Shown in pieces: positions 38,772-64,000 of a stretch of 64,000 bases of DNA. The position numbers and the translations under genes were made by a program. How positions within the stretch are numbered: the first letter of the stretch is position 1; each line of letters begins with the position of its first letter. The notes under the pieces are model-generated. The model was not told where the DNA came from. It made no database searches and was given only the letters and a program-made list of their open reading frames with translations. Origin of the DNA: a virus; the IMG/VR virus record IMGVR_UViG_3300043436_003324; one strand, written 5' to 3'.

Positions 38772-39026
38772 TTATAATTTAGTTATTATTTTTTTCATTA
38801 ATAGGGTGTTAAACGCGATTTTAAAAGGTATTGATACCTCATTACTTTTTAATCCTAAATCTTCGTCAACTTCGTTACTTTCCGTGAGAACAGTTTCTAG
38901 CATCGATTTAATAACCTCATATTTTACTAAATGTATTTGAGGTTCTCCGCTAACAATCGCCAAATTGACATAGTCCTCCATTACGTCAAGATCAACATAA
39001 TAGTTTTCATTCAATATTTTAAACAT
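38772..39026 (-). CDS. Small hypothetical protein
   Basis: 84 aa. Confidence 0.65.
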   Translation of the reverse strand: MFKILNENYYVDLDVMEDYVNLAIVSGEPQIHLVKYEVIKSMLETVLTESNEVDEDLGLKSNEVSIPFKIAFNTLLMKKIITKL

Positions 39027-40396: not shown

Positions 40397-40446
40397 TTTA
40401 AATTATTATTTGTTTATTATGTTAACTGATTATTCTACATAGAGTT

Positions 40447-43284: not shown

Positions 43285-43982
43285 ATTAAAGTATAATTAT
43301 TTAAATATTCTTTTATTTGGTCTCTTGAATTAAACATCATTACATCAATTATTGACAACCAAGGAACAAATTCATTATTAAATTGTGTATATTGGATTGG
43401 GTTTGATTTGATGAAATTGAGTTCAATATTATTTTGTTTAAAGGTTTCTTTGTTATATAATTCTACCCCACCTATAGAGTTTATATAAATATCCGCATTT
43501 TGTTCTTTACATAAGGATAAGACTTTATCTTGAGATTTCAAAGTATGGTCTGTATCTATTGTAGAAGAGATTATAATAGGTGTTTTAATTTCTAAATGAT
43601 CATTCATTAAAACGATACTATCGTATATAAATTTAAATAAATTAACCTCAGAATTATTTAAACATTTTGAAATTAACTCAAATGTTTCTTGAAAATAAGG
43701 GGATTTACCATATGAAGACTTAATAATATTTAACATCTTACTTTTATCTTTCTCCCATGACTTAGATAATTCTCGTTTTACTACATCTAAATAATCTGAG
43801 TCTTTTTTAATGGGTAAGGTAATAAGATGGTCTTTTCCATTTGATAAGATGCGGTTTCTATTTATCCACCCCTTTTTTGTGTATTGAATGTTATCATAAA
43901 TTATAAACTCATCAACAGAATTTATTAATTGGAAGTACCCGATGTAAGGTAAAAAGTATGGTTGCATTATTGCAAGTTTCAT
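43281..43982 (-). CDS. wbqC: WbqC-like protein
   Basis: IMQPYFLPYIGYFQLI, YTKKGWINRNRI, YINSIGG, LSIIDVMMFN. Confidence 0.88.
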   Translation of the reverse strand: MKLAIMQPYFLPYIGYFQLINSVDEFIIYDNIQYTKKGWINRNRILSNGKDHLITLPIKKDSDYLDVVKRELSKSWEKDKSKMLNIIKSSYGKSPYFQETFELISKCLNNSEVNLFKFIYDSIVLMNDHLEIKTPIIISSTIDTDHTLKSQDKVLSLCKEQNADIYINSIGGVELYNKETFKQNNIELNFIKSNPIQYTQFNNEFVPWLSIIDVMMFNSRDQIKEYLNNYTLI

Positions 43983-43984
43983 TT

Positions 43985-44824
43985 CTATAAATTATGTTTT
44001 ATAATTATTTTTTTTATATCTTCAGGGATTTCAATTAAATTAGGCATAAACCATTCATATAATCTGTTTTTTACTGAGATCTCATCTTCTAATATAAGAT
44101 ATTCCTTACAATACGAATATAATTCAATAGTCTTTTTGTAGTTTTCTAACATTGTAGTTATATCCATTTCTCTTAAGTGAACGGTATACAATTCAAATGG
44201 ATAATTTTTATCCTTTAAACCCTCAGTATATTCTGTGTATTCTTTAGCGTGTCTTCCTATAGTTCTTGGTAAGTAATTATTTTTATATATTGTCAATTTA
44301 CAATACCATGACGTTTCTTTTGTTTGGACGATGTCACACCAAACACCAAAATTTCTTTGTTCTAAAAATAATTTATTATTTGTAAACTCAGATTCAGGAA
44401 TCTCTAAATTTTGAACTATTTCAAATCCCTGAGAAAAACAATAGTCCTCTTTTTTATCTAAAAACCAATCTAAATTATCGCAAAGTAATAATTCATCAGG
44501 ATCGGTATAAATTATATTTTTATATCCTAAATTATAAAATTTTCTAAATATATCAGAAAAAAACATAACATTATTAATTTCATTTATATTTCCATAGTTA
44601 GAGACATCAACCACATTAATATTTGATTCTGGATAATTCAACTTAAACTCATCAATATAGCTTATCAAGTTAAGATTTTTATCAAATTTGTCAATTAAAA
44701 TAATTACGTCAATATTATAATTAATTGCATTTTTTAACCATAAAGGAAAAAAAATATTAAATCTATCAAATCTTGACGATATACAAGAGTTTGATTTTTT
44801 TATAAAATTAAAATCATAAATCAT
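43985..44824 (-). CDS. Glycosyltransferase-like protein (GT-A)
   Basis: IIYTDPDELL (DxD) and position in the cluster. Confidence 0.55.
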   Translation of the reverse strand: MIYDFNFIKKSNSCISSRFDRFNIFFPLWLKNAINYNIDVIILIDKFDKNLNLISYIDEFKLNYPESNINVVDVSNYGNINEINNVMFFSDIFRKFYNLGYKNIIYTDPDELLLCDNLDWFLDKKEDYCFSQGFEIVQNLEIPESEFTNNKLFLEQRNFGVWCDIVQTKETSWYCKLTIYKNNYLPRTIGRHAKEYTEYTEGLKDKNYPFELYTVHLREMDITTMLENYKKTIELYSYCKEYLILEDEISVKNRLYEWFMPNLIEIPEDIKKIIIKHNL

Positions 44825-45462
44825 TTTTTATATATTTCAAATTTAGATAAATCAGGGTATGGCATTTCTAAATCTTCATTATGTTTAGGAGTTTCCCCAT
44901 GATAAAATTGATTCATAAGTAACAAACCTCTTGCTGCCAATTCTGGCATCATATAAAAATTCCACCCCAACATATCAAAATGGTCATTATGATATGAACA
45001 TTCTCTTCTTCCAGAATATCTTGCTCTTTTAAACCAAAGATATGCATCATGATCATCGGTTAAAATGGCCCCTCCTTTTGATAATTTAAAATGTTTATAA
45101 GGTCCAGTAAAAGAAATGCACATATGCGTATTATGTTTATACATATTATGAGTAAAACTTAATGCCGAATCCCAAACATTACTACCAACTAAATTATAGG
45201 ACCCTTTTATTGTCTTACCCTCAACAGGTAAAAAATTTACTTTTAAACCTGCATGTATAATTTCACATGGTACGGATGGGTATGTCCTTGAAGGTATTGA
45301 TATTGTTTCTTCTGTTATACTTTTTTTTACATTTTTTTCATAAAAAAGAGATAAGAATAACGCATTACTTTGGTTATCAACAGTGACCACATACGGGGCT
45401 CCCGTATAGTCAGATAAAGATTTTTCAAAATCTTCGGTTATTTTATAAACACCATTTGCCAT
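44821..45462 (-). CDS. DegT/DnrJ/EryC1/StrS aminotransferase, short form
   Basis: FEKSLSDYTG, WDSA, SFTGPYKH (PLP Lys), GGAILTDD, GWNFYM. Only 213 aa. Confidence 0.8.
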   Translation of the reverse strand: MANGVYKITEDFEKSLSDYTGAPYVVTVDNQSNALFLSLFYEKNVKKSITEETISIPSRTYPSVPCEIIHAGLKVNFLPVEGKTIKGSYNLVGSNVWDSALSFTHNMYKHNTHMCISFTGPYKHFKLSKGGAILTDDHDAYLWFKRARYSGRRECSYHNDHFDMLGWNFYMMPELAARGLLLMNQFYHGETPKHNEDLEMPYPDLSKFEIYKK

Positions 45463-45464
45463 TT

Positions 45465-46982
45465 TTAAACTATTATAATTTTGTCTTTTATTTTTTCAAT
45501 TACATTTTCATTAATCATAGGAATAAAATTATGATTGTAATCATAAATAAAGTCTTCATCTTTTTTTGGGTCTTCGTTTCTTGTTTTAGATTCATAGTGG
45601 TAAGCAACACAATCCCCACAAATATAATTTTTATGATTACCACATAATAATTTAATATTTAATTCCACATCTTCTAAACAAGAAATGTAATTTTCATTAA
45701 ACATACCTTGTTTAATAAATGTGGTTTTTCTTACCAATAACAAACCTCCAGTACTTCCAATCACCTCTTTTAAATTATTATGATAGTTATAATAGTTTTT
45801 AAAATTAATATGTCCTAATCCAAAATTTGGGTTATTCTTTCTATTTAATGTAATAAAAATTCCGTCATGTTGTATGGTATTATCCTCAAAATGTAATCTA
45901 CAACCAACGCTACCCGTATTTTTGTGTTCATTAAAAACGTTTAACATTCCGGATATTACATCATTTAAAATTTTAATATCGTTATTACAGAATAGTAAAA
46001 ATTCATAATCATCACTAATTTGGTTTTTAACTACATCATTATTTATTTTTGCAAAATTATAATAATCGTAAGTGATTAATTTTACATTACCAATCGGTAG
46101 TATTTTATTTTTTATAATTTCTAGTTCATCATTATTTGACCCTGTGTCCGCAATAAAGACATCAAAAATATTTGAGTCGCAATTATCATAAAATGATTTT
46201 ACACATTCGTGTAACATACTAACATTTCCTTTTGTTGGTATTATAACTGCAATTTTTTTAAACTTTTTAAATTGTTTACGTTTTATTTGTGGAGCATAGA
46301 CTGACTCAGGTTTTAAATCTAAAGGTAATTTATCTCCCCACTTAGCAACAAATTTATTTTTACTCTCCCAAAATTCTTGGTTTGGTTGACCTACAGATTG
46401 GTGGGTAATTTCAAATGAGGTAGTAACCCCAATTTTAACATCATCAAGATAATTTGGAATACAAAATCCGTGATCGTAAAAATGGAACTTACCAATTGTT
46501 TCATCAAAGGTATGTTTAATTTTTGTTTTGTCAAAAGAAATAAATAAACCATCAATTGTTACAACAGGGATTATAAAAGGTAATTTAGGTGAATATCTAC
46601 TTAACCATTTTTTTTGTCCGTCAGGGTGGTGATAAACTTGACCCACCATAGTCTGACTTAATTTTTCCCAATATACTCCCGACTCAGGAAAGTAACAAGA
46701 TCCTGCCTTTCCTATAATTCCAAATTCAGGATTAGATACGAAATCATTAATTAATTTTTTACCCCAATTTTTTTCTAATTTAATGTCGTTGTGACAACAA
46801 ACTATAATATTGTGTTTAGATTCTTTAATACCTTTATTATAAAGTTCGGATAATGAATACTGGTTGTGGTTTATGTACTCCAATATTTGGATGTTATCAA
46901 TACCTGATGTTTGTAATAAATGTTGTTTAAATTTAGAATTATATTCTAAGTCTTTATGTGTTGAGTATAATATTGTTATCAT
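45465..46982 (-). CDS. Two-domain glycosyltransferase (GT2-like x2)
   Basis: CCHNDI...TIDGLF...FHFYD in the first domain; VIIPTK, FCNNDI, LEDVELN in the second. Confidence 0.8.
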   Translation of the reverse strand: MITILYSTHKDLEYNSKFKQHLLQTSGIDNIQILEYINHNQYSLSELYNKGIKESKHNIIVCCHNDIKLEKNWGKKLINDFVSNPEFGIIGKAGSCYFPESGVYWEKLSQTMVGQVYHHPDGQKKWLSRYSPKLPFIIPVVTIDGLFISFDKTKIKHTFDETIGKFHFYDHGFCIPNYLDDVKIGVTTSFEITHQSVGQPNQEFWESKNKFVAKWGDKLPLDLKPESVYAPQIKRKQFKKFKKIAVIIPTKGNVSMLHECVKSFYDNCDSNIFDVFIADTGSNNDELEIIKNKILPIGNVKLITYDYYNFAKINNDVVKNQISDDYEFLLFCNNDIKILNDVISGMLNVFNEHKNTGSVGCRLHFEDNTIQHDGIFITLNRKNNPNFGLGHINFKNYYNYHNNLKEVIGSTGGLLLVRKTTFIKQGMFNENYISCLEDVELNIKLLCGNHKNYICGDCVAYHYESKTRNEDPKKDEDFIYDYNHNFIPMINENVIEKIKDKIIIV

Positions 46983-47000
46983 AGTTTTCTAAATTCATTT

Positions 47001-47603
47001 TTATATACCAGTACTCCCAAACCCGTTGTCGGATCTATCTTTATTTTCAACCTCAGAAACTTTAACAATGTCAATCCATTTACCACAAACAACAGGACAT
47101 AAAACCGCTTGAGCTATTTTCATTCCTTTTGTTACTATAAAGTCTTCTTTATTTGTGTTAAATAATATTACTTTTATTTCTCCTGTATATCCTTGATCAA
47201 CAGTTCCTGGCGAATTTAAAACAAATAACCCTTGGTTTAATGCCAATCCACTTTTAGATCTAATTTGTATTTCATGATTTTCGGGAACATCAATTACAAT
47301 TCCTGTTGGGATTAGTTGTCTACCCATAGATGGTATTACAAATTCATCTACAGAATATAAATCCACACCAGAATCTGTGTCATATGCAAATTTAGGTAAA
47401 ACTGCGTCCTCATGAGTTAATTTAATTTTCATTTGAACTTTAGGGACATCTTCGGTAAAAACCCTTTCCAACTCATTAAGATCAATGCCATACTCATTCA
47501 TTAGAGCTTCTAACTCTAAGTCATCATTTACTTCATTCTCACTAAATAAACTTTCAAGATCTTTAGTTTGTGATAATATTTTATTTAATTGATTTTTATC
47601 CAT
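47001..47603 (-). CDS. dut: dUTPase with acidic N-terminal extension
   Basis: DSGVDL, RSKSGLA, PGTVDQGYTGEI, IAQAV, RSDNGFGSTG. Confidence 0.93.
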   Translation of the reverse strand: MDKNQLNKILSQTKDLESLFSENEVNDDLELEALMNEYGIDLNELERVFTEDVPKVQMKIKLTHEDAVLPKFAYDTDSGVDLYSVDEFVIPSMGRQLIPTGIVIDVPENHEIQIRSKSGLALNQGLFVLNSPGTVDQGYTGEIKVILFNTNKEDFIVTKGMKIAQAVLCPVVCGKWIDIVKVSEVENKDRSDNGFGSTGI

Positions 47604-48304
47604 TATTTTAAATCTTTTAATTGTTTTATGAATTCAACTAACACATCAACATCTTTTTCACAATACTCAGCAATTTGGGGTAATTTTTGTTCTACCCAAT
47701 AAGCGTGATGTACTTTATCTCCTGTTATTTCTCCGTCTTTAGGTGTTGGTATTCCCATTGTGGAACAAACCAAATCTAAGGAACCTATTGACGTGTAAGA
47801 ACCATATTGCCAAATTTCTTTTGTGTCAATTGCTTTAACCTCCCAAGGCTTCGTATCGTAAGATGGTAATAACTTAGACGGTAAAATTCCATTTATTATC
47901 ATTCTTTTTGCTAACATAGGAATATCAAAATTCTTTAAGTTATGTCCACATAGATAGAAATCTAATTTATGGCATCTATCTAGAAGACTTCTCACTTGTG
48001 TTAATAAAACTTTTTCATCATCACCTGAGAATGTTTGTTTTTTTACTTCTCCGTTATCCATAACGAACGCCATAGAAACACAAACAATTTTTGCAAACTC
48101 AGGAACTAATGATGAACGTTTTTTAAAAACTTCTTCTTTTGATAACCCAATATCTTCTGGAAATCTTTTTTGAAACCAATCAAAATATTTCTCAAACTGT
48201 TCTGCAATTTCAGGACTAAATCTTTCGCAAGATTCTAAATCAGGACAACCCCCAACAGTTTCAATGTCAAGGAATAAAATTTTTGTAATGGGTATGTTTA
48301 TCAT
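47603..48304 (-). CDS. DEDD 3'-5' exonuclease (PolB-exo-like)
   Basis: LFLDIETV, GHNLKNFDIP, YCEKDV. Confidence 0.85.
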   Translation of the reverse strand: MINIPITKILFLDIETVGGCPDLESCERFSPEIAEQFEKYFDWFQKRFPEDIGLSKEEVFKKRSSLVPEFAKIVCVSMAFVMDNGEVKKQTFSGDDEKVLLTQVRSLLDRCHKLDFYLCGHNLKNFDIPMLAKRMIINGILPSKLLPSYDTKPWEVKAIDTKEIWQYGSYTSIGSLDLVCSTMGIPTPKDGEITGDKVHHAYWVEQKLPQIAEYCEKDVDVLVEFIKQLKDLK

Positions 48305-48307
48305 AAT

Positions 48308-49525
48308 TTATTTAATTAAAGATTTGTAAAATTGATATCTTTCGCGAGTAACGTTATTAAGGTCATATTTGTCTTTCACGGTTTCATAAAGTCTTTCTCC
48401 AAGATCAACAATCATACTTGGATTGTCGACCAACTTTTTAATATTTTTTGCCCAATCACTATGATTATTATTTTCGTTAACCAATAAAGCGTTACCATCG
48501 GTAAATTTACCTTGATGTAAAGCGTGTTTTAAATCAATCGTGTATGGACCAACATTTGATGCAATTAAAGCTTTCTTATAAAATCCTGCCTCAATAACTT
48601 TCAATTGAGACTTCATTCTATTAAAGATATGATTTTGAATTGGTGATAACGATATGTCAAATTTAGAATAATTTTTAGCATATGACGTTACAGGTTTTGT
48701 CCATACTCTTACATAGTTCTCGTTATTTAAAGACCCAAAATAGGTTTCATCCGTAAATTTATTTAAAAACTCTTTGTATTTTGGTGAAACTATTTTGTAG
48801 TTATTAGTAAAAATTTCTTCGTACTTAACCCATACAGTTTCTTCAGGGTTGATTGGTCTTTGTTTCTTTTCTCCTGTTTGTTTATTTATTTCAGTAACCA
48901 TACCTCTTGTGTCAAAACCACAAACATAAAATTGTAATTTATCTTGTATTTGGGATAATTTGCTAACCGTCCCATCTAATAATTTTAAATCATGTAAGTG
49001 AGAGGATCCCCCTAACCAACCTACTCTTATTTTATCTGAAGGTAGTGTTTCCTCATTGTATTGAGGATCCTGTGGATCTATTGCGTTTGGTAACACAATA
49101 ACATTTTTATTAAATTTTCTAATCTCATTAGCAAAAATTTCAGTGGTTGTTGTTACGTATGAGGCGGCTTTAAGATTTTGAACTATTTTTTCATGTATCT
49201 TATTTGCCAAGATAAGTTGTTGTATTGGATGTTCCTTTGTTGGTAACCAATAATCGTCAATATCCCCAACAACAATAATTCCTTCTAATTTTAATTTATT
49301 TATTAAAGATAAAGATTTCTCATAATCTTGCCCAATACTTCTATGAAAATGAACAATTTGGTATTTTTTAAAATAGTTTATGTCATCAACGTTTGGTTGA
49401 TAATCAATATCAATATGAAATTCTTCAGGGTACATGTTTTGTAATTTAACATGTGGATCTATAGATCTATATTTACCAACACCTGATTGATCTGAAGGTA
49501 ATACTAATACGTTAATTTTTTCCAT
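48308..49525 (-). CDS. GT-B glycosyltransferase (GT4-like)
   Basis: GVGKYRSIDP, DIDDYW, LPNAID, VGWLGGSSHLHDL, KSQLKVIEAG. Confidence 0.8.
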   Translation of the reverse strand: MEKINVLVLPSDQSGVGKYRSIDPHVKLQNMYPEEFHIDIDYQPNVDDINYFKKYQIVHFHRSIGQDYEKSLSLINKLKLEGIIVVGDIDDYWLPTKEHPIQQLILANKIHEKIVQNLKAASYVTTTTEIFANEIRKFNKNVIVLPNAIDPQDPQYNEETLPSDKIRVGWLGGSSHLHDLKLLDGTVSKLSQIQDKLQFYVCGFDTRGMVTEINKQTGEKKQRPINPEETVWVKYEEIFTNNYKIVSPKYKEFLNKFTDETYFGSLNNENYVRVWTKPVTSYAKNYSKFDISLSPIQNHIFNRMKSQLKVIEAGFYKKALIASNVGPYTIDLKHALHQGKFTDGNALLVNENNNHSDWAKNIKKLVDNPSMIVDLGERLYETVKDKYDLNNVTRERYQFYKSLIK

Positions 49526-52418: not shown

Positions 52419-55274
52419 ATGGCGGGACAAAATATTAATCAATATGTGTTTCAAAAATATAAAATAAACACCGTTAATGAGTCAATGGATATGTCATTGT
52501 CGTCAGATGAAAGAGATTATAACGAGGAAGTTATTTTTTCTCCATACCTTATTGCGGAAACCTACGGTAATAAATTACCAATTAATATTGATATTAATAA
52601 TCCATTAACATCTCAAGGATTAATATTAAATTATAAAAATTTTAATTCTAATAATGTTTTTGTTTCTCAAAATTACTATAACCCAAACAATGAAGATCTA
52701 ACTTGTTTTTCATCATCAACATTATGTGATGTAGGTTTAACAGGTATAGATAATGGTTTGGTTGATAAAATGACGGGGGAGACCTTAAATTATACAAAAG
52801 GATTATATAATGATTTTTTAAAATTTGACAGATTACATTTTGATAGAAGAATTAAATTATTCCAAGTAACGGGACACACCCAAAGTAATAATAAATTTTC
52901 AGGAATTACAAAAGACACTCTTTATGAGGTTGTAAGTAAAAACGATCCTCAGTTTGGTAAGTACCATGAATTGTACGGTGGTTTCTACCAAGGATTTTAC
53001 AAACTATTTGGATTTGATTATGAGGTTTTACCTGAAAGATCTTCTAAAGGTTGGTCGGTAGAAATGTTATTAAGACCTAGATTTGTTAATGAATACAATC
53101 CATTACCTACTGAAACAACTCTTAATGAGATGTACCCAAAAAATAAAAATACGTTTTTTTATTTTGGTACAAGAGCCGAAAATAAATTTTACCATCATGC
53201 TGATGGACACCCAAATTGTTTAACTGGTTATACAAGAGTTACTAATTCATTAAGTGGTTGTCCGTCAACATGTGCTTGTTGTGATAGAACAGTTACGGAT
53301 AGTAGATGTGTTTATGTTTACCCACCAAGATCTTATAATAACCAACATGATCCACATTTAAATTATGGATGTCCACTTTGTGGTGGGGACAAAAAAATCT
53401 CACTAACATGTGGTTGTGGTTGTAATGAAAGTTCATGTGAAACTTGTGGGTGGGAATGTCAAATACATAATTGTGAAACAGTAATTTTACCAACACCTAC
53501 CCCGTCACCAACACCAACACCTACCCCGTCATGTGAAACACAAACACCGGTATGTACACCAACCTGTACTAAATGTGAAACGTGCGATGAGTGTACAACT
53601 TGTGGACCAACGGGTTTTACTTCTATTGAGTACACATGTGAGACTGATCCATTGTTTGATGTTATGTCAAATAATATATCGTTTAAACTTTGTGGTGATG
53701 TGAAAAACCCACAGATTGGTGTAAAGGTATTAAGGTTTACTGGTGGTTGTGAAACAACGGGAACTTGCGTAACGGGTAAAACATATGTTACAGGATATAC
53801 TATTGATGAATATTGTTCACCACCAATTTATCCTTATTGTGAAATTGTTAACCCTGATTTCTTAAATGAGGAGCATTGGTTTTTAGTTAACGTAACTTGG
53901 GAAAGATATTCATGGTTTGATTTCTGCGATTTAAAATTTTATGGAGGTTTGTTTGACATTACTAAATTTGAATACTTGGAATCTTTGGCAAACAACAGTG
54001 TTGAATTAATAAGACCTCCTTTAACCCATAACAATAAAAGCGGAGAATTAATAGAATTAGTTAACTTAAATGAAACTTGGTTAGATGAAAAAAAACATAG
54101 ATTAGGAAGATTAAAGATTTATGTTAACGGTAAAAAAATATATACAATAGAGGACTTTGAAGAAGTAATACCAAGAGGTTTGTTTACCGATAAAGAAAAA
54201 CAAATAGGGGTTCCTTTTAATATCTCTTGGGGTGGTGGAACACAAGGATTACATGAAAATTTAACTTTTTCATCTTGTTCTGCGTTAACATCAAATTACA
54301 TACAAGATCCAGAATGTTTACCTAATAATATATTAAGTGGTACTACTTTATCGGGGTTAAGTACTAACATACTACTTGAACAAAATTTCGGGGGAACCTT
54401 TGATGGGGGGATATCTCAGTTCAGATTTTATATTGAACCTTTAGAATCCGACGAGATCAAACATAATTTTAAATTGTTGAAAGATAAATTTATTTTATTT
54501 GATCCTGATTGTCCTGATTGTGATACTAAATTTTGTAAGACAAATGATTTAACATATCAGATAAATGATGTTGTTACAAGTACAACAACAATAAATTCTT
54601 TACCACATAGTTTAGGTAGGGTTTATATTGAGGACAAAAGAGATTTAAATTATCTTATAAAAAACAACCAACGAACACTCCAACAAATATCAACACCACC
54701 AAAAGTTTTAACTCAAAGGTATTGGGACGCCAATGGATGGTGGGGAGATCAAGGAAACACACCTCAATGTGTTGGGTATTCGTGGTCACATTGGTTAGAA
54801 GATGGTCCTGTACAACAATCAGGAATTCCACCAATAATTAAACCTTTTGATATTTACAAGAACGCACAAAAATTAGACCAGTGGATTGGCGAAAATTATG
54901 AAGGAACATCGGTTCGTGGTGGTGTAAAATATTTAAAAAATATTGGTAAAGTAAAATCATATTATTGGGCATTTGATGTACAAACATTGTCTGAAACAAT
55001 TTTAAAATTAGGTCCTGTGGTTGTTGGGACTAATTGGTATAATGGAATGTTTTATCCTAATAAAACTGGGTTAATTAAAATTAGTGGACAGATGGTTGGT
55101 GGTCATGCCTACTTAATAAATGGTGTTGACACAAAAACAAAACAATTTAGAATAAAGAACAGTTGGGGTAAATCTTGGGGTAATGGTGGACATGCGTTTA
55201 TTTCGTTTAATGATATGTCAAGGTTAATAAAAGAAAATGGAGAAATCTGTTTGGCAATTGAATTAGGAAGTTAA
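52419..55274 (+). CDS. Large Cys-rich, PT-repeat protein with C-terminal papain-like (C1) peptidase
   Basis: Catalytic motifs DQGNTPQCVGYS, GGHAY, KNSWGKSWG; PTPTPSPTPTPTP linker; LamG-like LKIYVNG and GGISQFRFY segments. Confidence 0.8.
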   Translation: MAGQNINQYVFQKYKINTVNESMDMSLSSDERDYNEEVIFSPYLIAETYGNKLPINIDINNPLTSQGLILNYKNFNSNNVFVSQNYYNPNNEDLTCFSSSTLCDVGLTGIDNGLVDKMTGETLNYTKGLYNDFLKFDRLHFDRRIKLFQVTGHTQSNNKFSGITKDTLYEVVSKNDPQFGKYHELYGGFYQGFYKLFGFDYEVLPERSSKGWSVEMLLRPRFVNEYNPLPTETTLNEMYPKNKNTFFYFGTRAENKFYHHADGHPNCLTGYTRVTNSLSGCPSTCACCDRTVTDSRCVYVYPPRSYNNQHDPHLNYGCPLCGGDKKISLTCGCGCNESSCETCGWECQIHNCETVILPTPTPSPTPTPTPSCETQTPVCTPTCTKCETCDECTTCGPTGFTSIEYTCETDPLFDVMSNNISFKLCGDVKNPQIGVKVLRFTGGCETTGTCVTGKTYVTGYTIDEYCSPPIYPYCEIVNPDFLNEEHWFLVNVTWERYSWFDFCDLKFYGGLFDITKFEYLESLANNSVELIRPPLTHNNKSGELIELVNLNETWLDEKKHRLGRLKIYVNGKKIYTIEDFEEVIPRGLFTDKEKQIGVPFNISWGGGTQGLHENLTFSSCSALTSNYIQDPECLPNNILSGTTLSGLSTNILLEQNFGGTFDGGISQFRFYIEPLESDEIKHNFKLLKDKFILFDPDCPDCDTKFCKTNDLTYQINDVVTSTTTINSLPHSLGRVYIEDKRDLNYLIKNNQRTLQQISTPPKVLTQRYWDANGWWGDQGNTPQCVGYSWSHWLEDGPVQQSGIPPIIKPFDIYKNAQKLDQWIGENYEGTSVRGGVKYLKNIGKVKSYYWAFDVQTLSETILKLGPVVVGTNWYNGMFYPNKTGLIKISGQMVGGHAYLINGVDTKTKQFRIKNSWGKSWGNGGHAFISFNDMSRLIKENGEICLAIELGS

Positions 55275-55873
55275 TGAGTACAAGTATTACAATAGAAAGT
55301 ATTAATTTTATTGGGGAAAGTGTTACAGTACTTTTCAAACCCGATAACGATTTGGTTACAATTAATTTGGGTCCAATAACTCTACCGTTTATATTTTTTC
55401 CGGCTTCTTTAAACCCACCAAGAGAAGTATATGGAACATACACAATATTAGTGGATGAAAATAAATGTGTTAACATACTTAATGTTCCAAGAGTTACGCC
55501 AACACCAACACCGACGATTACTCCAACAAGAACTCAAACACCAACACCAACACCTACTAACACTCCAACAACGACTTTGGATCCTTGTAAAGTACCAACA
55601 CCAACACCTACGGTAACGCCAACAATAAGTTTAACTCCAACAATAACACCTACACCAAGTGCGACTTGTACTAATCCTTGTGGGTGTGGTGACCCAACAC
55701 CAACACCAACAGTTAAACCACCTAAACCAACACAAACTTGTACAAACCCTTGTGGATGTACCCCAACACCTACACCAACAGGAACTAATACTCCTATTTT
55801 TATATTTTATATTACCGGTGAAAACGGGAATAGGATATTGTCGGAAATAAGTGAGTACATAATTGCAGAATAA
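55274..55873 (+). CDS. Pro-Thr repeat (mucin-like) protein
   Basis: Multiple (PT)n tracts and a duplicated CTNPCGC. Confidence 0.8.
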   Translation: MSTSITIESINFIGESVTVLFKPDNDLVTINLGPITLPFIFFPASLNPPREVYGTYTILVDENKCVNILNVPRVTPTPTPTITPTRTQTPTPTPTNTPTTTLDPCKVPTPTPTVTPTISLTPTITPTPSATCTNPCGCGDPTPTPTVKPPKPTQTCTNPCGCTPTPTPTGTNTPIFIFYITGENGNRILSEISEYIIAE

Positions 55874-55899
55874 ACTATTTATAAATTAAAAAATAAAAA

Positions 55900-57201
55900 A
55901 TGTCAGACGTTAAAATATCTCAATTTCCATATGTGGGTAATACAGGTTATACACCAAATGATTTGTTTGTGTTTGTTAACTACTTAAATCCTACCGGAAC
56001 AACAAGTAACACAAAAATAGACGACTTTAAAAATTTCATAATAATTGATTCTTATGATTATTTTCTACCATTAAGTGGGGGGAGTGTAACAGGATCAACA
56101 ACATTTACAAATGGATTAACCGCAAACACAATATCCGCAACAACATATCAAAATTTACCTAAAGATATATTTGTTACAGGAGGTACATATTCAAACGGGA
56201 GTACCACGTTTATAAACAATACAGGTGGTACATTTACAATTACAGGGTTTAGTACAACAACACCATTTACAGGTGGTACCGTATCAGGGGCGACTAATTT
56301 CACAAATGGTTTAACTGCGAACACAATATCTGCAACAACATATCAAAACTTACCTGTTGATCCTGATACTTTTGTGACAGGATTTACATACGGTAATAAT
56401 GTTTTTACAATAAAACAAAATAACGGACAACCTGATTTAACCGCAACAATTAATTCGGTAACAGGATTAACGGTTAATGGTAATCTAAATGTTACAGGTA
56501 ATACTTCTTTACAAGGATTAACCGCAACAACAATATCGGCAACAACAATATACGTTAGTCCTGGAGGTGCGAATGGAATAGTTCAAACTATTACTGGGTT
56601 AAACACAAACAATACTAATCCTGAAAATCCCGTTATTAATATTTCAGTTGATGGTGTTAGTATTACAGGTGATGGAACACCTGCAAATCCTTTAGTTTCT
56701 TCTAACCCAAATATAAATTTGCCGTCTTGTAAAATAAATATAAATGGTACCACAGGTTTATCAAACACAAACAATGGGGTTTTATTTTTATCTTTATTTA
56801 ATAATACCGTTTATAATACAAGTCCTTCTAATTTTGTAATTACAAATAGTAAAATTCAAATTGTAAATAATGGCAAATATCTAATATTAGGTAGATATTC
56901 AAGTTATGATATGTCAGATGGTACCGACTTTTTAAGTATTGGGGTTTTAAGTGCAACAACATCAGGTAATTTGGATTTAGGGACAACAATAGAGTATTTA
57001 GATAAAGGTTATATTGGGACAACAACAAATGGTGAAGCCAGTAAGAGTGGTAGTATGGTATATGTTGCCTCAGGAGGTGAATGGATTGGTCTTAATGCTT
57101 TACATGGTGGTGCTTCTGGTGGTAGTGGCACACAAGGGTACCCTGTTTTTGACAATTCACTTTTTAATCAACCATATCTTGAAATAATAAAAATATCATA
57201 A
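55900..57201 (+). CDS. Tail fibre-like Thr/Gly-rich repeat protein
   Basis: Repeated FTNGLTANTISATTYQNLP and VTGGTYSN-type motifs. Confidence 0.65.
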   Translation: MSDVKISQFPYVGNTGYTPNDLFVFVNYLNPTGTTSNTKIDDFKNFIIIDSYDYFLPLSGGSVTGSTTFTNGLTANTISATTYQNLPKDIFVTGGTYSNGSTTFINNTGGTFTITGFSTTTPFTGGTVSGATNFTNGLTANTISATTYQNLPVDPDTFVTGFTYGNNVFTIKQNNGQPDLTATINSVTGLTVNGNLNVTGNTSLQGLTATTISATTIYVSPGGANGIVQTITGLNTNNTNPENPVINISVDGVSITGDGTPANPLVSSNPNINLPSCKININGTTGLSNTNNGVLFLSLFNNTVYNTSPSNFVITNSKIQIVNNGKYLILGRYSSYDMSDGTDFLSIGVLSATTSGNLDLGTTIEYLDKGYIGTTTNGEASKSGSMVYVASGGEWIGLNALHGGASGGSGTQGYPVFDNSLFNQPYLEIIKIS

Positions 57202-57216
57202 ATAAAAATTAAAAAT

Positions 57217-57363
57217 ATGAATAATACTTGGGATAGTGTTACTTATTATATCTTAAATGGTGATATTAAATCTGAAGAAATTTATAAAACCAAAACAGAA
57301 ATAAACCAATGCCCGTCATATGGTGAAGGAATTTTTATTATTTATAATGAAATAAACCAATAA
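57217..57363 (+). CDS. Small hypothetical protein (48 aa), not in ORF track
   Basis: MNNTWDSVTYYILNGDIKSEEIYKTKTEINQCPSYGEGIFIIYNEINQ*. Confidence 0.45.
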   Translation: MNNTWDSVTYYILNGDIKSEEIYKTKTEINQCPSYGEGIFIIYNEINQ

Positions 57364-57364
57364 G

Positions 57365-57832
57365 ATGCCAAACGATATTACAATAACAAATATAACAGGA
57401 ACATCGCCATATGATTTATATGTTTGTGATGTTACAAATACTTTGTGTGTTTTTATATCAGGATTAACATCTGTTCCACCAAGTTATACTTTTATTGTTC
57501 CTCCACCATTAAATACTTCAGGGTCTTTATTAATTAAAATTATAGACGGAGATGGGTGTGAGAGGTTTGAGTATTACTCATGTGTAAGTCCCACACCAAC
57601 ACCAACCCCCACACCAACACCAAGTCCTTTACCAATATGTTATTGTACTGAGGCCATTGCATTAACCGATTCGGATGGTACTTTAGATTTTGTGGATTGT
57701 CTTGGCGTTACAAATACATCAGTCCCAATAATCTACACATCACCAACTTATTTTTGTGCGTCTGTTGTAACAAATTTATCTAATGTTAATATTGTTACCG
57801 GACCACCTTGTGTTTCTAATCTTTGTGTTTAA
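57365..57832 (+). CDS. Cys-rich PT-repeat protein
   Basis: SPTPTPTPTPTPSP tract; late motif at 57339. Confidence 0.8.
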   Translation: MPNDITITNITGTSPYDLYVCDVTNTLCVFISGLTSVPPSYTFIVPPPLNTSGSLLIKIIDGDGCERFEYYSCVSPTPTPTPTPTPSPLPICYCTEAIALTDSDGTLDFVDCLGVTNTSVPIIYTSPTYFCASVVTNLSNVNIVTGPPCVSNLCV

Positions 57833-57879
57833 ATTATTTATTTTAGTTCATTTGTTTATTATTTTTTAAAAAAAAAGTA

Positions 57880-59127
57880 ATGAAAATTTTTATACAAATT
57901 GCGTCTTATAGGGACCCACAATTAATACCAACAATCAAAAATTGTGTAGACAACTCAAAAAATCCACAGAATTTAGTTTTTTCAATTGCAAGACAATTTA
58001 ATCCTGAAGATAAGTTTGATGATCTCTCAGAATTTGAGTCCGATAAAAGATTTAAAATTTTAAACATTCCTTATCAAGAATCAAAAGGAGTTTGTTGGGC
58101 AAGAAATCTAACTCAACAACAATATGATGGTGAAGAATATACTTTACAGATAGATTCCCATATGCGTTTTGAAAAGGATTGGGATCAAACTTTAATTGAC
58201 ATGATTAAAGATTTACAAACCAAAGGTCATAAAAAACCATTATTAACTGGTTATGTGTCGTCTTTTGATCCTGACAATGATCCCCAAGGTAGAGTTTTAG
58301 AACCGTGGAGAATGACGTTTGACAGATTTACACCTGAAGGTTGTGTCTTCTTTCTTCCTGAAGTTATACCTAATTGGAAAAACCTAACGGAACCAATACC
58401 ATCAAGATTTTACTCGGCTCACTTTTGTTTCACATTAGGAGAATTTTCAAAAGAAGTTCAACACGATCCCGAATATTATTTTCACGGAGAAGAAATCTCA
58501 ATTGCCGTAAGGGCCTATACTCATGGATATGATTTATTTCATCCACATAAAATTGTTATTTGGCATGAGTACACAAGAAAAGGTAGAACAAAACAATGGG
58601 ACGACGATAAAGAATGGTATAAGAAAAATGAATCATCACATTCTAAAAATAGAAAACTTTTAGGTGTTGATGGTGAAATATTAAACGAGGAGATTGGAAT
58701 CTATGGGATGGGAACAGAACGTACCGTTACAGAGTACGAAAAATACTCAGGCATACTATTTTCAAAAAGAGCGGTACAACAATATACAATAGATAAGAAA
58801 TATCCACCAAACCCATACGATTATAAGAACGAGGAAGAATGGATTAATAGTTTCTCAATGATCTTTAAACATTGTATTGATGTTTCATTTAACGATGTTC
58901 CAGAAAATGATTATGAGTTTTGGGTTGTTGCATTTCACAATGAAAAAGATGAAACGCTCTTTAGAAAAGATGCGGACACAGGAGAAATTCTTAGGATGAA
59001 ACAAGATCCTGACGGATATTGTAAAGTATGGAGAGAGTTTAACACAACAGAGAAACCAAAGTACTGGGTTGTTTGGCCGTACTCAAAATCAAAAGGATGG
59101 TGTAATAGATTAACGGGAAATTTATAA
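57880..59127 (+). CDS. GT60-like polypeptide GlcNAc-transferase (Skp1 Gnt1/TcOGNT-like)
   Basis: IFIQIASYRDPQL, GVCWARN, LQIDSHMRF, FHGEEISI, IWHEY. Confidence 0.8.
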   Translation: MKIFIQIASYRDPQLIPTIKNCVDNSKNPQNLVFSIARQFNPEDKFDDLSEFESDKRFKILNIPYQESKGVCWARNLTQQQYDGEEYTLQIDSHMRFEKDWDQTLIDMIKDLQTKGHKKPLLTGYVSSFDPDNDPQGRVLEPWRMTFDRFTPEGCVFFLPEVIPNWKNLTEPIPSRFYSAHFCFTLGEFSKEVQHDPEYYFHGEEISIAVRAYTHGYDLFHPHKIVIWHEYTRKGRTKQWDDDKEWYKKNESSHSKNRKLLGVDGEILNEEIGIYGMGTERTVTEYEKYSGILFSKRAVQQYTIDKKYPPNPYDYKNEEEWINSFSMIFKHCIDVSFNDVPENDYEFWVVAFHNEKDETLFRKDADTGEILRMKQDPDGYCKVWREFNTTEKPKYWVVWPYSKSKGWCNRLTGNL

Positions 59128-59130
59128 ATT

Positions 59131-60135
59131 GTGAATTTAGAAATTAGACACGAATTTAGGGACATTAGATTTGGTAATGATGAATTTTATGTGACAAGTT
59201 TTTTTAAAAAATTTTACGAAAAACTTAAAACAAAATATCCTAATCACAATTTTACGGTTAACAATAAAAAAGAATACGAAAAATATGGTCAAGGAGGAAT
59301 TCATAGTTGTATGAATTTTTCAATTATAAATCCGTTAAACAAAAATTATATACTAATTTCTTTTTTTGATAATTGGAAATATCATTTCATGTCTCACTTA
59401 GGGTGGGAGGCGAACAAAATGAAACAATTTTTTTACCCTGGAGGGTTTAATTTTTTAGACTATTTTAATTTTAAAGAAATCTCTAAAACTAACAGAGATT
59501 TAATATTCCCAAAAAACATAGATTCAATTTATAATTCATTTTATTACGGACCTTATTTTGATTCTTGTTATGATGAAATGAAAGTTTTATATAATAACAA
59601 ATCAAATATAGAAAAAAGTGATAAATTATATTTTAGAGGATGGTTATGGGATTTTAGAAAAGAAATGGTTAAAAACATTAATAGAGAAGATGTTTTAATA
59701 ATTGATAAAAATGAGAACAATCAAAATTTAAATTATAATACTTATTTAAACGAAACTTCACAATACGCCGCAGCACTAAGTTTACCTGGTGGTAATGAAA
59801 TGTGTAATAGGGATATTGAATGTTTTGGTATTGGTGTTCCTGTTATAAGACCTACATTGAATATTGAATATAATGATCCATTGATACCTAACTATCATTA
59901 CATTAGTTGTTATCATTTTTGTGACTATAGTGATGGGGGGCACCCAAAATACTTATCTTATGAAGATTTTAAAAAAAATTTATTAATAACATGGGATAAA
60001 GTAAAAAATAATAAAGAATATTTAAATTTTGTTTCTACTAATGCAAGGTCTTGGTTTGAAAGAAATTGTACTGTGGAAAACAACATTAATCATATTTTAG
60101 ATAAACTTAATTTAGAAAAATTATTAGAGGAATGA
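59131..60135 (+). CDS. Putative GT-B glycosyltransferase
   Basis: LYFRG and LSLPGGNEMCNRDIECFGIGVPVI. Confidence 0.55.
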   Translation: MNLEIRHEFRDIRFGNDEFYVTSFFKKFYEKLKTKYPNHNFTVNNKKEYEKYGQGGIHSCMNFSIINPLNKNYILISFFDNWKYHFMSHLGWEANKMKQFFYPGGFNFLDYFNFKEISKTNRDLIFPKNIDSIYNSFYYGPYFDSCYDEMKVLYNNKSNIEKSDKLYFRGWLWDFRKEMVKNINREDVLIIDKNENNQNLNYNTYLNETSQYAAALSLPGGNEMCNRDIECFGIGVPVIRPTLNIEYNDPLIPNYHYISCYHFCDYSDGGHPKYLSYEDFKKNLLITWDKVKNNKEYLNFVSTNARSWFERNCTVENNINHILDKLNLEKLLEE

Positions 60136-61805
60136 TAACATTAGTAACAGGTTTATGGGATATCGGTAGAGGTAATATGGCAGAGGGTTGGTCAAGAAAC
60201 TTTGATTTTTATTTAGAAAAATTTAAAGAACTGTTAAAGATTGATTGTAACATGATAATTTTTGGTGATATAGAATTACAAAAATTTGTTACTGATCAAA
60301 ACAGAGACTTAAATAAAACTAGGTTTATATTAAGAGATTTAAGTTGGTTTAGAAATAACGATTACTATGAAAAAATACAAACCATAAGAACAAATCCTAA
60401 TTGGTATAACCAAGTTGGTTGGTTAAAAGACTCGACACAAGGTAAGTTAGAAATGTATAACCCATTAGTTATGTCTAAAATGTTTTTATTACATGACGCA
60501 ATGTTACTTGATCCTTTTAATTCTGAAAAACTTTATTGGATAGATGCCGGATTAACAAACACAGTTAGTGTTGGTTATTTTACTCATGATAATGTTTTAG
60601 AAAAAATAAATAAAACATTTAATAACTTTACGTTTATATGTTTTCCGTATGAAACAAATACTGAAGTACACGGATTTGAGATAAATAAAATGACAGATCA
60701 TATTGGTAAAAAACCAAATATGGTATCAAGAGGAGGATTTTTTGGGGGAACCAAAGAAACAATTTCCCAAATGAATTCATTATATTATCAATTATTGTTT
60801 CAAACCTTGAACTACGGTTTAATGGGCACAGAAGAAAGTTTATTCACAATTTTAACCTACACTCAACCTAATATAATTGATTACGTAAAAATAGAATCAA
60901 ATGGGTTATTATATAAATTTTTTGAGGATGTTAAAACCAACAATGTGGTCATAGAAAATAAAAAACCAAAAATAATAACTAACAATGAAAATAATGGGGG
61001 GGTTGGTTTATACGTGATAACATTTAATTCTCCTAAACAGTTTGAAGTTTTGGTTGAGTCTATGATGGAATATGATCCTTCATTTATATCCAAAACCAAA
61101 AAATTTTTATTAGATAATTCAACTGATTTAACAACAACAAATGAATACTTGAGAATTTGTGAGATGTATGGTTTTGTTCACATAAAAAAGGATAATATTG
61201 GAATAACAGGTGGTAGGCAGTTTATTGCTGAACACTTTAACGAACAAAATGATCTATCAACATATTATTTTTTTGAAGACGATATGGCTTTCTACCCAAA
61301 GGAAAGTGATACATGTAAAAATGGTTTTAATCGATTTGTTAAAAATTTATTTAACATAACTCAAGAAATAATAAAAAAAGAAAATTTTGATTTTTTAAAA
61401 TTAAATTTTACTGAATTTTTTGGTAGTCACGATAAACAATGGGCTTGGTATAATGTTCCCCAAAGTTTTAGGGAGTCTCATTGGGAAAATAATAAATTAT
61501 TACCAAAACAAGGTCTTGACCCTAATTCACCAAACTTAGAATATAAACATATAAAATCACATAAAGGGGTTCCATATGCTAGCGGTGAAGTTTATTTATC
61601 TAATTGGCCGATATTAATGACAAAGGAAGGAAATTATAAATGTTATATTAAAACAAAATTTCAAAACCCATACGAACAAACATTAATGAGTCATTGTTAT
61701 CAAGAAACAATTAAAGGAAACATTAATCCATCTGTTTTATTACTTACACCAACGGAACATAATAGATTTGATTTTTATAGTTCCGATTTAAGAAAAGAAT
61801 GTTAG
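60132..61805 (+). CDS. HtrL/YibB-like glycosyltransferase fused to a GT-A domain
   Basis: TLVTGLWDIGR, YWIDAG, GGFFGG, GTEE; second domain has FFEDDM. Confidence 0.7.
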   Translation: MITLVTGLWDIGRGNMAEGWSRNFDFYLEKFKELLKIDCNMIIFGDIELQKFVTDQNRDLNKTRFILRDLSWFRNNDYYEKIQTIRTNPNWYNQVGWLKDSTQGKLEMYNPLVMSKMFLLHDAMLLDPFNSEKLYWIDAGLTNTVSVGYFTHDNVLEKINKTFNNFTFICFPYETNTEVHGFEINKMTDHIGKKPNMVSRGGFFGGTKETISQMNSLYYQLLFQTLNYGLMGTEESLFTILTYTQPNIIDYVKIESNGLLYKFFEDVKTNNVVIENKKPKIITNNENNGGVGLYVITFNSPKQFEVLVESMMEYDPSFISKTKKFLLDNSTDLTTTNEYLRICEMYGFVHIKKDNIGITGGRQFIAEHFNEQNDLSTYYFFEDDMAFYPKESDTCKNGFNRFVKNLFNITQEIIKKENFDFLKLNFTEFFGSHDKQWAWYNVPQSFRESHWENNKLLPKQGLDPNSPNLEYKHIKSHKGVPYASGEVYLSNWPILMTKEGNYKCYIKTKFQNPYEQTLMSHCYQETIKGNINPSVLLLTPTEHNRFDFYSSDLRKEC

Positions 61806-61833
61806 TTGTTATATTTATAATTAAAAACAATTA

Positions 61834-62778
61834 ATGGAATTCTTTATTAAGAAAAACGCTACATTACCAATTTTAAAAATGCAAGTTGTTAAAGATGGTC
61901 GTAGTGATTTCAATAAAATGATGGGACTAATCGAAAATTCTGCCATATTCTTTTCTATGGTGGATATAGAAACAGGTATTCCTAAAATTACAACTAGACC
62001 TGCGGGGTTTGTATCTAAAAAAATGTTAGACCCAAATGCCGATCCTGAATATTATGTTTACTATCAATTTACAAATAAAGACACAAGAAAAGTTGGTAGG
62101 TATGAAGGCCAATTTCTATTAAGAAATGAAGATGGTGTTTTAATATTACCAATAAGAGATAAGTTATTTATTAACATACAAGAAAGTTTTATTGCGGAAG
62201 ACCTTCCATATGACAGTTGTTATGTTAGTGAATTTCCTTGTTGTATTTTACCAACCCCCACACCATCACCAAACCCCACACCAATAGTAACAACTACAAC
62301 AACATTTCAACCAACACCAACACCTTCACCATTACCTTTAGAGGTTGTTTTGGAAGCAATAATCACATCAGGATCAACAATAATAGATTATAATCTTACG
62401 TCAAATATTCAATTTGATGAACCAATATTAATTTATTTTAATCATACTCTTAATGTTTACACGGGTTCTCCAATAAATATTACAACAGGAGTTACAATAT
62501 CTGTTGGGGAAATTTCTGGAAATACACGAGTTATTTTAGATGAAAATTTTAATAATTTAACAAGAATAGATAGTTTTGGTAATATAATTACCTACCCAAA
62601 CCCTCTTAATTTTACTATAACAGAAAATTACCCAATTACACCAACACCAACACCTACTATAACGCCAACACCAACTCCAACACCAGTTGACGTATTAATT
62701 AATCCTATAATAACTGAGAACGATTATTATATAATAATTGGGGATAACGAATATTTTAAATTCGTAGATCCAATATAA
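61834..62778 (+). CDS. PT-repeat structural protein (BppU-like N-terminus possible)
   Basis: Three PT/T tracts; late motif at 61812. Confidence 0.7.
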   Translation: MEFFIKKNATLPILKMQVVKDGRSDFNKMMGLIENSAIFFSMVDIETGIPKITTRPAGFVSKKMLDPNADPEYYVYYQFTNKDTRKVGRYEGQFLLRNEDGVLILPIRDKLFINIQESFIAEDLPYDSCYVSEFPCCILPTPTPSPNPTPIVTTTTTFQPTPTPSPLPLEVVLEAIITSGSTIIDYNLTSNIQFDEPILIYFNHTLNVYTGSPINITTGVTISVGEISGNTRVILDENFNNLTRIDSFGNIITYPNPLNFTITENYPITPTPTPTITPTPTPTPVDVLINPIITENDYYIIIGDNEYFKFVDPI

Positions 62779-62810: not shown

Positions 62811-64000
62811 ATGGCATTAACAGGTAAAACAATTGGAGAATTAGAATTTCTACAATTCCCAAATAACGAAACATTACTCCCTGTAGAATACAGTGGGGAT
62901 ACTTATCATATTGCATTTTCGTCAATTACATACAACGAGGGAACATATTCACAGTTTGTTGCGGAAGCCAATTCGGGTGTATTAACACCAGGTAGATTTT
63001 ACTTGATGACCGATTATCAAACTTGTTATGACCAACCAAACTATGATACTAATGGCATCCCAATAACGATTGGTAATTATAAGACAGGAACAACAGAACC
63101 TATATTATTGTTGGCAATTTCAACAACAGGATTCTCCCCTACAGTTTATTCAACACTATATCCACAAGATAAAATCTCTTATGATATTACTTGGAATGCA
63201 ACTGAAGTTACAGATAATCCTGCTAAAGGTAGAATTACTGAAAGAATTGACGAGTTTAATAACAGAACAGATTATGACCATAGACAAGTGGTATTTAAAC
63301 GATACGAAACATCACCTTCAAGTGGTATTTATACAGTAATTAAAGATAATGGGAATCCTTACATTGATGATATTCCAACTTTTGGAACAGGTTGTTATTC
63401 TAATAAAATAGGGAACTTTTATACCACCTTAGATTTAAACAATACAGGTTTTATTTTATCAAATAATATATTTGATGATGATTGTTGGGACAATACAACA
63501 GGGGCAGATTTTTATAATAATACAATCGGTTCAATAGTTTATGAAAATAAATTTGGGGATTCATGTCATGATAATGTGATAGAAGGAGATGCTTATAACA
63601 ATGTGGTAAATAACAACTTTAGTTTAAACACAATAGGTGGTCAATTTTATAATAATACCATATTCAATGGATTTAGATTAAATGTGATAGGGTCACAATT
63701 TGGAGGAAATGAAATTTTAAGTGGATTTAGAGAAAATCAAACATCTGCAGGATTTGCTAAAAATAGAATTGGTTATGATTTTAGAAATGTAGGTATAACT
63801 ATTGGAACAAACTTTTTAGATAATCAAATAGGGAACAATTTTACTGATAATATTGCTATTGGAGATGACTTCCAAAATAATGTGATAGGTAACAATTTTC
63901 AAGAAAATAACATTGGAAATGGATTTTTTTCAAATCAAATAGGAATCCTATTTAATAATAACACTTGTTATGGTTCATTTGCATATAACACCATAGGAGC
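62811..64000 (+). CDS. Tail fibre/beta-solenoid repeat protein, truncated at window end; not in ORF track
   Basis: MALTGKTIGEL... appears open to the end of the window; about 9-residue N-x-IG-x-x-F repeats; late motif at 62790. Confidence 0.8.
   Translation, partial: MALTGKTIGELEFLQFPNNETLLPVEYSGDTYHIAFSSITYNEGTYSQFVAEANSGVLTPGRFYLMTDYQTCYDQPNYDTNGIPITIGNYKTGTTEPILLLAISTTGFSPTVYSTLYPQDKISYDITWNATEVTDNPAKGRITERIDEFNNRTDYDHRQVVFKRYETSPSSGIYTVIKDNGNPYIDDIPTFGTGCYSNKIGNFYTTLDLNNTGFILSNNIFDDDCWDNTTGADFYNNTIGSIVYENKFGDSCHDNVIEGDAYNNVVNNNFSLNTIGGQFYNNTIFNGFRLNVIGSQFGGNEILSGFRENQTSAGFAKNRIGYDFRNVGITIGTNFLDNQIGNNFTDNIAIGDDFQNNVIGNNFQENNIGNGFFSNQIGILFNNNTCYGSFAYNTIG

Follow-up and report, generated by a model that had tools for sequence, protein, structure and literature searches.

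We analysed a 64,000-nucleotide stretch of viral DNA (IMG/VR record IMGVR_UViG_3300043436_003324; hereafter the window) and focused on positions 52,419 to 62,778, where a gene for a family GT60 glycosyltransferase and two further transferase-like genes lie among open reading frames (ORFs) whose products carry proline-threonine (PT) tracts. The window is low in GC (about 30%). Its genes, as judged by Pfam and PHROG profiles, include those for a portal and a major head protein of T4 type, others for replication and nucleotides, and many for sugar enzymes. The nearest record has 68% of the window’s sampled 31-letter words in common with it, and close relatives in IMG/VR include contigs of up to 304 kb, rated 93–100% complete. 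Because of the T4-type head and portal genes and the size of these near-complete relatives, we conclude that the source is an uncultured jumbo myovirus. Searching cultured phages with the region’s DNA for near-identical sequence gave no match. Close relatives of the GT60 gene were present on 439 IMG/VR contigs, and in metagenomes its close homologues formed more than 7,000 clusters at 90% identity. The closest copies in bacterial bins were on contigs, several of them short, assigned to Saprospiraceae, Chitinophagia, Cytophagaceae and other Bacteroidota, a hint that Bacteroidota may be the hosts of this phage group.

An earlier, first-pass annotation of this DNA, made from the letters and their translations, had named four ORFs as bearers of PT or Thr tracts. 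All four exist, and their PT tracts were seen both in the translations and in a six-frame scan of the whole window for runs of at least three PT. Such runs occurred in exactly four ORFs, all between 52.4 and 62.8 kb, and the capsid gene had none. At the DNA level, a pattern for PTPTPT matched 11 times, always on the + strand and between 53.5 and 62.7 kb, compared with 0 matches in 100 shuffles. The four products are the candidate acceptors discussed below. The first, delineated from its translation and the segment scan, is a 951-amino-acid (aa) modular protein (52419..55274, + strand) with a PT tract at aa 354–377 between Cys-rich CxxC stretches, a Thr run (VVTSTTT) near aa 715 and, at its C-terminal end, a papain-like (C1) peptidase domain (PF00112 and phrog_16701; window positions 54606–55274). 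A C1 peptidase is also present in phage XacN1 (ORF382), according to the paper describing that phage (PMC5852040). The second, a 199-aa protein without a Pfam or PHROG family (55274..55873, + strand), is Pro/Thr/Ser-rich and mucin-like over about half its length (some 100 aa, aa 71–175), the stretch being broken by PCGC motifs. The third, of 155 aa (57365..57832, + strand), carries (PT)5 at aa 71–92 and lies directly upstream of the GT60 gene. The fourth, of 314 aa (61834..62778, + strand), has two tracts, at aa 137–170 (with TTTTT) and aa 265–287, which divide three modules.

Two neighbours in the same series look fibre-like and match no family: a 433-aa Thr/Gly-rich protein with internal repeats in its translation and no PT tract (55900..57201, + strand), and an Asn/Gly-rich repeat protein of beta-helix-like, fibre-type appearance that runs off the window end (62811..63998, + strand). 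In both the 951-aa and the 199-aa protein, dense Cys motifs (CETC, CDEC, and TCTNPCGC twice) flank the PT tracts (window positions 53400–53650 and 55650–55800); at the linker ends these motifs could form metal- or disulfide-stabilised knots. We also considered an N-terminal module common to the 199-aa and 155-aa proteins, and discarded it for want of BLAST support.

The GT60 gene itself (57880..59127, + strand) encodes the proposed initiating polypeptide transferase. The profile hidden Markov model check that the first-pass annotation had called for placed the protein firmly in PF11397 (E 1.8e-72; 245.2 bits against a cut-off of 21), covering profile positions 2–45 and 97–349 of 352, and phrog_24687 matched at 561 bits. 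An alignment of 40 GT60 sequences, reaching down to 35% identity, shows no variation at D92, H94 or H229. D92-x-H94 together with H229 would fit the DxH-plus-His metal site of family GT27. The predicted model has a pLDDT (predicted local distance difference test score) of 96; in it, a GT-A domain leads into a beta-rich C-terminal domain of about 90 aa (approximately aa 325–415). The top 20-odd PDB matches of the model, and most of its other good ones, are polypeptide N-acetylgalactosamine (GalNAc) transferases, that is, the mucin-initiating enzymes of GT27. Searching solved structures by sequence gave nothing useful for this protein, nor for the HtrL-like profile introduced below. Pfam detects no lectin family in the enzyme, the beta-rich domain at aa 325–415 being present in the model, and the protein lacks a transmembrane (TM) segment. 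Many GT60 representatives carry two to four GT60 domains, and in 1 of 150 a PT tract is fused to the GT60 protein itself.

Regarding what enzymes of this family do, the literature agrees with the first-pass annotation: characterised GT60 members are polypeptide alpha-N-acetylglucosamine (GlcNAc) transferases, which initiate mucin-type glycans in protists and, in the case of Gnt1, act on a hydroxyproline of Skp1 in the cytoplasm (reviews); the absence of a ricin-type lectin domain is given as the feature dividing GT60 from GT27 (review). Four genomes, those of two near-complete relatives and of XacN1 and RAS14, were searched for members of the prolyl hydroxylase family PF13640. Because they yielded none, Thr is the likelier acceptor residue in this phage, and we set hydroxyproline aside.

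Two genes follow GT60, and both proved glycosyltransferase-like, as had been proposed. The first (59131..60135, + strand) encodes a 334-aa protein with no sequence family (Pfam, PHROG, NCBIfam) and a predicted GT-B fold. Its model has a pLDDT of 78, and all 16 Foldseek matches at E<=0.001 are GT-B transferases (probability 0.98–1.0), among them TarM, GtfA, SdgB, PglA, POGLUT1 and A075L of the chlorovirus PBCV-1, with TM-scores to GT-B structures of only 0.3–0.45. The second (60132..61805, + strand) encodes a 557-aa two-domain protein whose N-terminal half matches PF09612 HtrL_YibB at aa 2–251 (E 4.6e-17; 62.9 bits, cut-off 24.1). As it falls below the NCBIfam equivalog cut-off of TIGR02192, we regard it as a relative of Escherichia coli YibB and as a different protein. 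Its C-terminal half contains an invariant EDD motif (E382-D383-D384) and is probably GT2-like, a call that is no more than a feature-based lead.

The arrangement of these genes was examined in the 80 best GT60 loci of the phage group, to which all related-locus counts refer. GT60 and the 557-aa HtrL-like gene were both present in 80 of 80. Between them lay anything from 0 to about 6 kb of DNA, drawn from 51 protein families in 33 arrangements, and the GT-B gene of the window was one variable-cassette member, found in 13 of the 80 loci. The cassette transferases that could be identified were of GT25, GT34, GT10, GT7C/GT2, GT31 and PLOD type; the other enzymes comprised CmcI- and FkbM-type methyltransferases, a carbamoyltransferase, a DegT aminotransferase, GNAT, nucleotidyltransferase and HAD phosphatase. 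Because GT60 and the 557-aa gene are constant while the content between them varies, the locus looks like an O-antigen cluster, with two fixed genes around what would be a diversifying set of glycan-building enzymes.

The flanks of this bracket carry PT tracts. Of the 80 loci, 73 had at least one PT ORF. The gene immediately preceding GT60 was PT-rich in 46/73 loci and the one immediately following the 557-aa gene in 38/75, compared with 86 of 1032 other ORFs of the same loci. The PT-rich flanking proteins vary in length, from about 100 to about 1600 aa, and relatives of the window’s own four occur in only part of the loci; the N-terminal module of the 314-aa protein is kept after the HtrL-like gene in relatives, with matches in 70 of the 80. 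The conserved feature of the flanks is the PT tract beside the enzymes. In near-complete genomes, PT tracts fell into three to five clusters, one of which always adjoined GT60. Together, family membership, folds, this bracket-and-cassette layout and the co-occurrence of GT60 with PT tracts are what the analysis shows.

Co-occurrence extended beyond the phage group. The PTPTPT pattern matched 11–31 times in each of seven GT60 phage genomes, compared with 0–1 matches for a reversed-pattern control. Among cultured phages, GT60 was found only in XacN1, Xoo-sp13, CM1 and RAS14 (42–47% identity), and the same four, and no others, encode a full-length relative of the 557-aa protein. XacN1, whose GT60 is 47% and whose HtrL-like protein is 40% identical to those of the window, has 31 PTPTPT matches, and RAS14 has 11, with none for the reversed pattern in either. 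The XacN1 tracts reside mostly in large hypothetical proteins, several of them beside sheath, baseplate or other structural genes, and its GT60 block is a few genes away from baseplate wedge genes and a 3313-aa PT-bearing protein. Purified XacN1 virions gave at least two bands positive for periodic acid-Schiff, a glycoprotein stain, and the authors named ORF334, the GT60 gene, as a candidate enzyme (PMC5852040). In the five large phages nearest by capsid protein that lack PF11397, no PTPTPT match occurred in 1.6 Mb.

A selection made from the other side gave a similar picture. A (PT)5 tract was the sole criterion for picking 44 viral contigs, and 9 of these also carried PF11397, with identities to the window enzyme from 79% down to 27% (five at 42% or less). 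In a complete 108-kb phage, the genes for a PT protein and for a 28%-identical GT60 are about 3 kb apart. In a lineage chosen via a 35%-identical GT60, 5 of 9 contigs were very PT-rich (9–73 matches), and a protein with an 80-aa PT region lies directly upstream of GT60. The co-occurrence proposed by the first-pass annotation therefore stood in the window’s phage group, in distant cultured and uncultured phages and, as described next, in bacteria; as a strict rule it did not stand, since there are exceptions in both directions. Three contexts of divergent GT60 genes had no PT tract within 9–27 kb. In a phage-like setting (metagenome contigs L224/L225), a 37%-identical GT60 is found beside HSP70, HSP20, ClpS, Fe-SOD and eIF-1a-like genes, a different enzyme context with no PT tract within 12 kb.

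GT60 relatives were detected in the genomes of at least 563 bacterial species. A PT tract in an ORF of at least 150 aa lay within 6 kb of GT60 in 16 of 51 bacterial loci with full flanks, the whole-genome rate in bacteria being roughly one PT locus per 300–500 kb, and in two bacterial genomes the densest PT locus of the entire genome was the gene adjoining GT60. A relative of the 557-aa protein was found within 6 kb of GT60, often directly adjoining it, in 29 of 80 bacterial loci. In Gemmatimonadaceae, the order of PT protein, GT60 and HtrL-like gene matches that of the window phage. The proteins that directly precede GT60 and the HtrL-like gene there (L252:5230-5955 and L248:5215-5940), and likewise in L223, combine an N-terminal PqqD-like domain with a hydrophobic stretch and a Thr/Pro/Ser tail of 100 aa; L223 has, in addition, a separate PqqD gene between two GT60 genes. 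Elsewhere (L284:7563-8243 and L288:7548-8129), small proteins with a twin-arginine translocation (Tat)-type signal (RRQF) and about 150 aa of PT repeats directly follow GT60, which would fit cytoplasmic modification before export. Finally, a 2461-aa protein from a bacterial metagenome contig (P0122, L226:10001-17386) contains several GT60 domains together with 2-oxoglutarate (2OG)-Fe(II) oxygenase domains (PF13640). A single chain would thus unite an enzyme of prolyl-hydroxylase type with a transferase of Gnt1 type, which recalls the pathway of hydroxylase plus Gnt1 and points to protein acceptors.

Upstream of the fibre-like genes, on the opposite strand, lies a 12.6-kb cluster of soluble sugar-tailoring and transferase genes (36901..49525, - strand; Pfam and PHROG matches). 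It encodes three GT2 enzymes (one with a second GT2-like domain), a GT1-like enzyme, a DegT aminotransferase, WbqC, a GNAT-methyltransferase fusion and a beta-propeller, and is interspersed with PhoH, a dUTPase/dCTP-deaminase-like gene and a 3'-5' exonuclease. From its proximity, it is a possible supplier of unusual sugars to the GT60 block. Of the 29 proteins encoded at 36–64 kb, none had a convincing TM segment, and the one weak segment is in a gene unrelated to sugars. Because no sugar or transferase gene there has a TM-like segment, no flippase, polymerase or lipid-linked initiator appears to be encoded at 36–64 kb, and the sugar pathway is predicted to be soluble.

The first-pass annotation had also referred to a late motif. 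TATTTAT indeed occurs 20–45 nt upstream of the genes starting at 52419, 55900, 57365, 57880, 61834 and 62811, and of the capsid and portal genes as well (for example, at 52400 before the 951-aa gene, 55876 before the 433-aa gene, 57835 before GT60 and 62790 before the Asn/Gly-rich gene). Its total count in this 70%-AT window is about that expected by chance, so we rejected the motif as stand-alone evidence; what is suggestive is its position before gene starts, which suggests late co-expression.

We consider it fairly likely that GT60 initiates O-glycans on the PT tracts of the phage’s own fibre-like proteins, and that these glycans are extended by the conserved partner and the variable cassette; in other words, that this phage probably sugar-coats its own appendages. 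Here, we infer the acceptor, the sugar, the timing and the location in the virion. Late in infection, the soluble GT60 would add a first sugar to Thr (or Ser) residues of the PT tracts, by analogy alpha-GlcNAc from uridine diphosphate (UDP)-GlcNAc. The two-domain HtrL/GT2-like enzyme and lineage-specific enzymes would then lengthen and decorate the chain, the latter set consisting in this phage of one GT-B transferase, possibly joined by the neighbouring amino-sugar cluster. The linkers would thereby gain glycan sleeves that are stiff, resistant to proteases and specific to the strain. Placement on baseplate or tail, and the roles proposed for such glycans, are speculation. At the comparative level, every checkable element of the interpretation offered by the first-pass annotation held, and we consider it supported.

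Several observations weigh against this interpretation. PT-tract glycosylation in these phages is a prediction from the genes, with the donor sugar and the acceptor residue taken from analogy and inference. The four PT proteins match no recognised structural family in Pfam, PHROG or NCBIfam profiles, and their place in the virion is deduced from gene context. Most supporting loci come from one abundant clade, so that the counts given above are not independent and overstate the support. The XacN1 bands are a stain result with the proteins unnamed, and its authors draw no link to PT tracts (PMC5852040); moreover, the XacN1 block also borders replication genes (DNA polymerase and RNase H). The remaining points, namely PT tracts in complete relatives that lie 20–70 kb from GT60, complete small phages with (PT)5 tracts and no GT60, and the absence of PT tracts from four of the nine contigs selected through a divergent GT60, one of them a complete 178-kb genome, would also be accommodated if the cassette glycosylated phage proteins at non-PT sites, such as the capsid, the sheath or fibre domains, and the PT tracts were ordinary flexible linkers. 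This alternative could also draw on the mycobacteriophages, in which capsid and tail-tube subunits bear glycans at their C-termini (Freeman et al. 2023, as cited in PMC12619734). Nevertheless, we regard it as unlikely: PT-rich genes are about seven times as frequent next to the bracket as elsewhere in that fibre module, the pairing of GT60 with PT tracts recurs in bacteria, which have no phage fibre module, and the five related phages without GT60 are devoid of PT tracts.

A non-protein acceptor (phage DNA that is hypermodified, a polymer of the host envelope, some small molecule) would be in keeping with the frequent modification of DNA by phage glycosyltransferases (reviewed in PMC12619734), with the dUTPase/dCTP-deaminase-like gene and exonuclease inside the neighbouring sugar cluster, and with a thymidylate-synthase-family protein in relatives and the polymerase and RNase H genes adjoining the XacN1 block. 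However, in relatives more than 100 kb separate the block from that thymidylate-synthase-family gene, the 36–64 kb region lacks the membrane proteins needed for lipid-linked synthesis, and all characterised GT60 enzymes and their nearest structural relatives act on polypeptides, as the bacterial GT60/2OG-Fe(II) oxygenase fusion would also suggest. Since it would, in addition, leave the PT co-occurrence unexplained, we judge such an acceptor improbable. The predicted solubility and cytoplasmic location of GT60, in a protein-modifying family, would also suit an enzyme that acts on host proteins and so subverts or disables the cell, much as bacterial glycosylating effectors do. This we find hard to credit, given that the gene sits inside a fibre-gene module, shares its upstream TATTTAT motif with the capsid and portal genes and is followed by chain-extending enzymes and a hypervariable cassette, which would be needless for a single regulatory modification.

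The glycosylation of PT tracts that we favour would combine elements of several known systems. To our knowledge, mucin-type initiation by GT60 is known only from protists. The phage enzyme has in common with the protist enzymes (Gnt1 of Dictyostelium and Toxoplasma; the mucin-type initiators of Trypanosoma cruzi and Dictyostelium) PF11397, a GT-A fold with D-x-H and a distal His, and chain-extending transferases that follow; like Gnt1 it is predicted to be cytoplasmic and soluble, and its candidate acceptors are Thr/Pro-rich. Unlike them, it is encoded by phages (and bacteria), bears the additional beta-rich C-terminal domain of about 90 aa, and is described here solely at the level of its genes; and unlike in the Skp1 pathway, the partner prolyl hydroxylase was not found in the four related phage genomes searched. 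The nearest solved structures are animal GT27 ppGalNAc-transferases, which act on dense Ser/Thr/Pro tracts. These animal enzymes carry a ricin-type lectin domain and reside in the Golgi as type-II membrane proteins. They belong to another CAZy family and are 10–16% identical to the phage protein, which, in contrast, is soluble and has no lectin family by Pfam.

Similarly, we know of very few cases of protein glycosylation in tailed-phage virions. As in the mycobacteriophage case (cited in PMC12619734), phage transferases would act in the host cytoplasm on the phage’s own structural proteins; the neighbours of the block are fibre-like genes, and the window has the capsid and portal genes as well. 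The candidate acceptors differ, being internal PT tracts of modular fibre-like proteins, and so does the initiator, GT60. The nearest described gene block is ORF334-ORF330 of XacN1 (PMC5852040), in which the GT60 and HtrL-like pair brackets sugar enzymes as in the window, with a carbamoyltransferase and two unknown ORFs in place of the window’s GT-B enzyme. Conserved flanks around highly variable transferases and sugar-tailoring enzymes recall O-antigen and capsule clusters, and a virus with its own glycan machinery recalls chloroviruses and mimivirus. Unlike those clusters and giant viruses, the system has no lipid carrier, flippase or polymerase, and its proposed acceptor is a protein tract in a tailed phage. 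Our literature searches on GT60 with phage, on PF11397 and on O-glycosylated Thr-rich phage fibres found no prior description; a ‘moraphage’ paper (PMC12619734), considered as one, concerns a different, Lak-related lineage. What is new here is the combination of phage virion glycosylation with GT60 mucin-type initiation, each kind being known before.

If our interpretation is true, very abundant freshwater jumbo phages build their own mucin-like glycan sleeves, which differ by strain through an O-antigen-like cassette. This would have a bearing on phage adsorption and stability, on recognition by hosts and grazers, and on phage serotyping, and the enzymes would provide a soluble, portable toolkit for the bacterial production of mucin-like glycoproteins. 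We also put forward, tentatively and as a possibility that we would not yet bet on, a wider proposal: GT60 and its HtrL/GT2-like partner may form the core of a widespread, undescribed prokaryotic pathway of cytoplasmic mucin-type O-glycosylation, present in freshwater jumbo phages and many bacterial phyla, with the phage cassette conferring a strain-specific glycan ‘serotype’ on the fibres. Such serotype-like variation, if true, implies an arms race over glycan recognition. More speculatively, the glycans could serve as bait for the polysaccharide-uptake receptors of Bacteroidota hosts, or as an escape from recognition by hosts or grazers. As a minor observation on the region between the sugar cluster and the fibre genes, a small ORF there (positions 50253–50636, - strand) shows a weak match to a WYL domain (E 4e-4, just below the cut-off).

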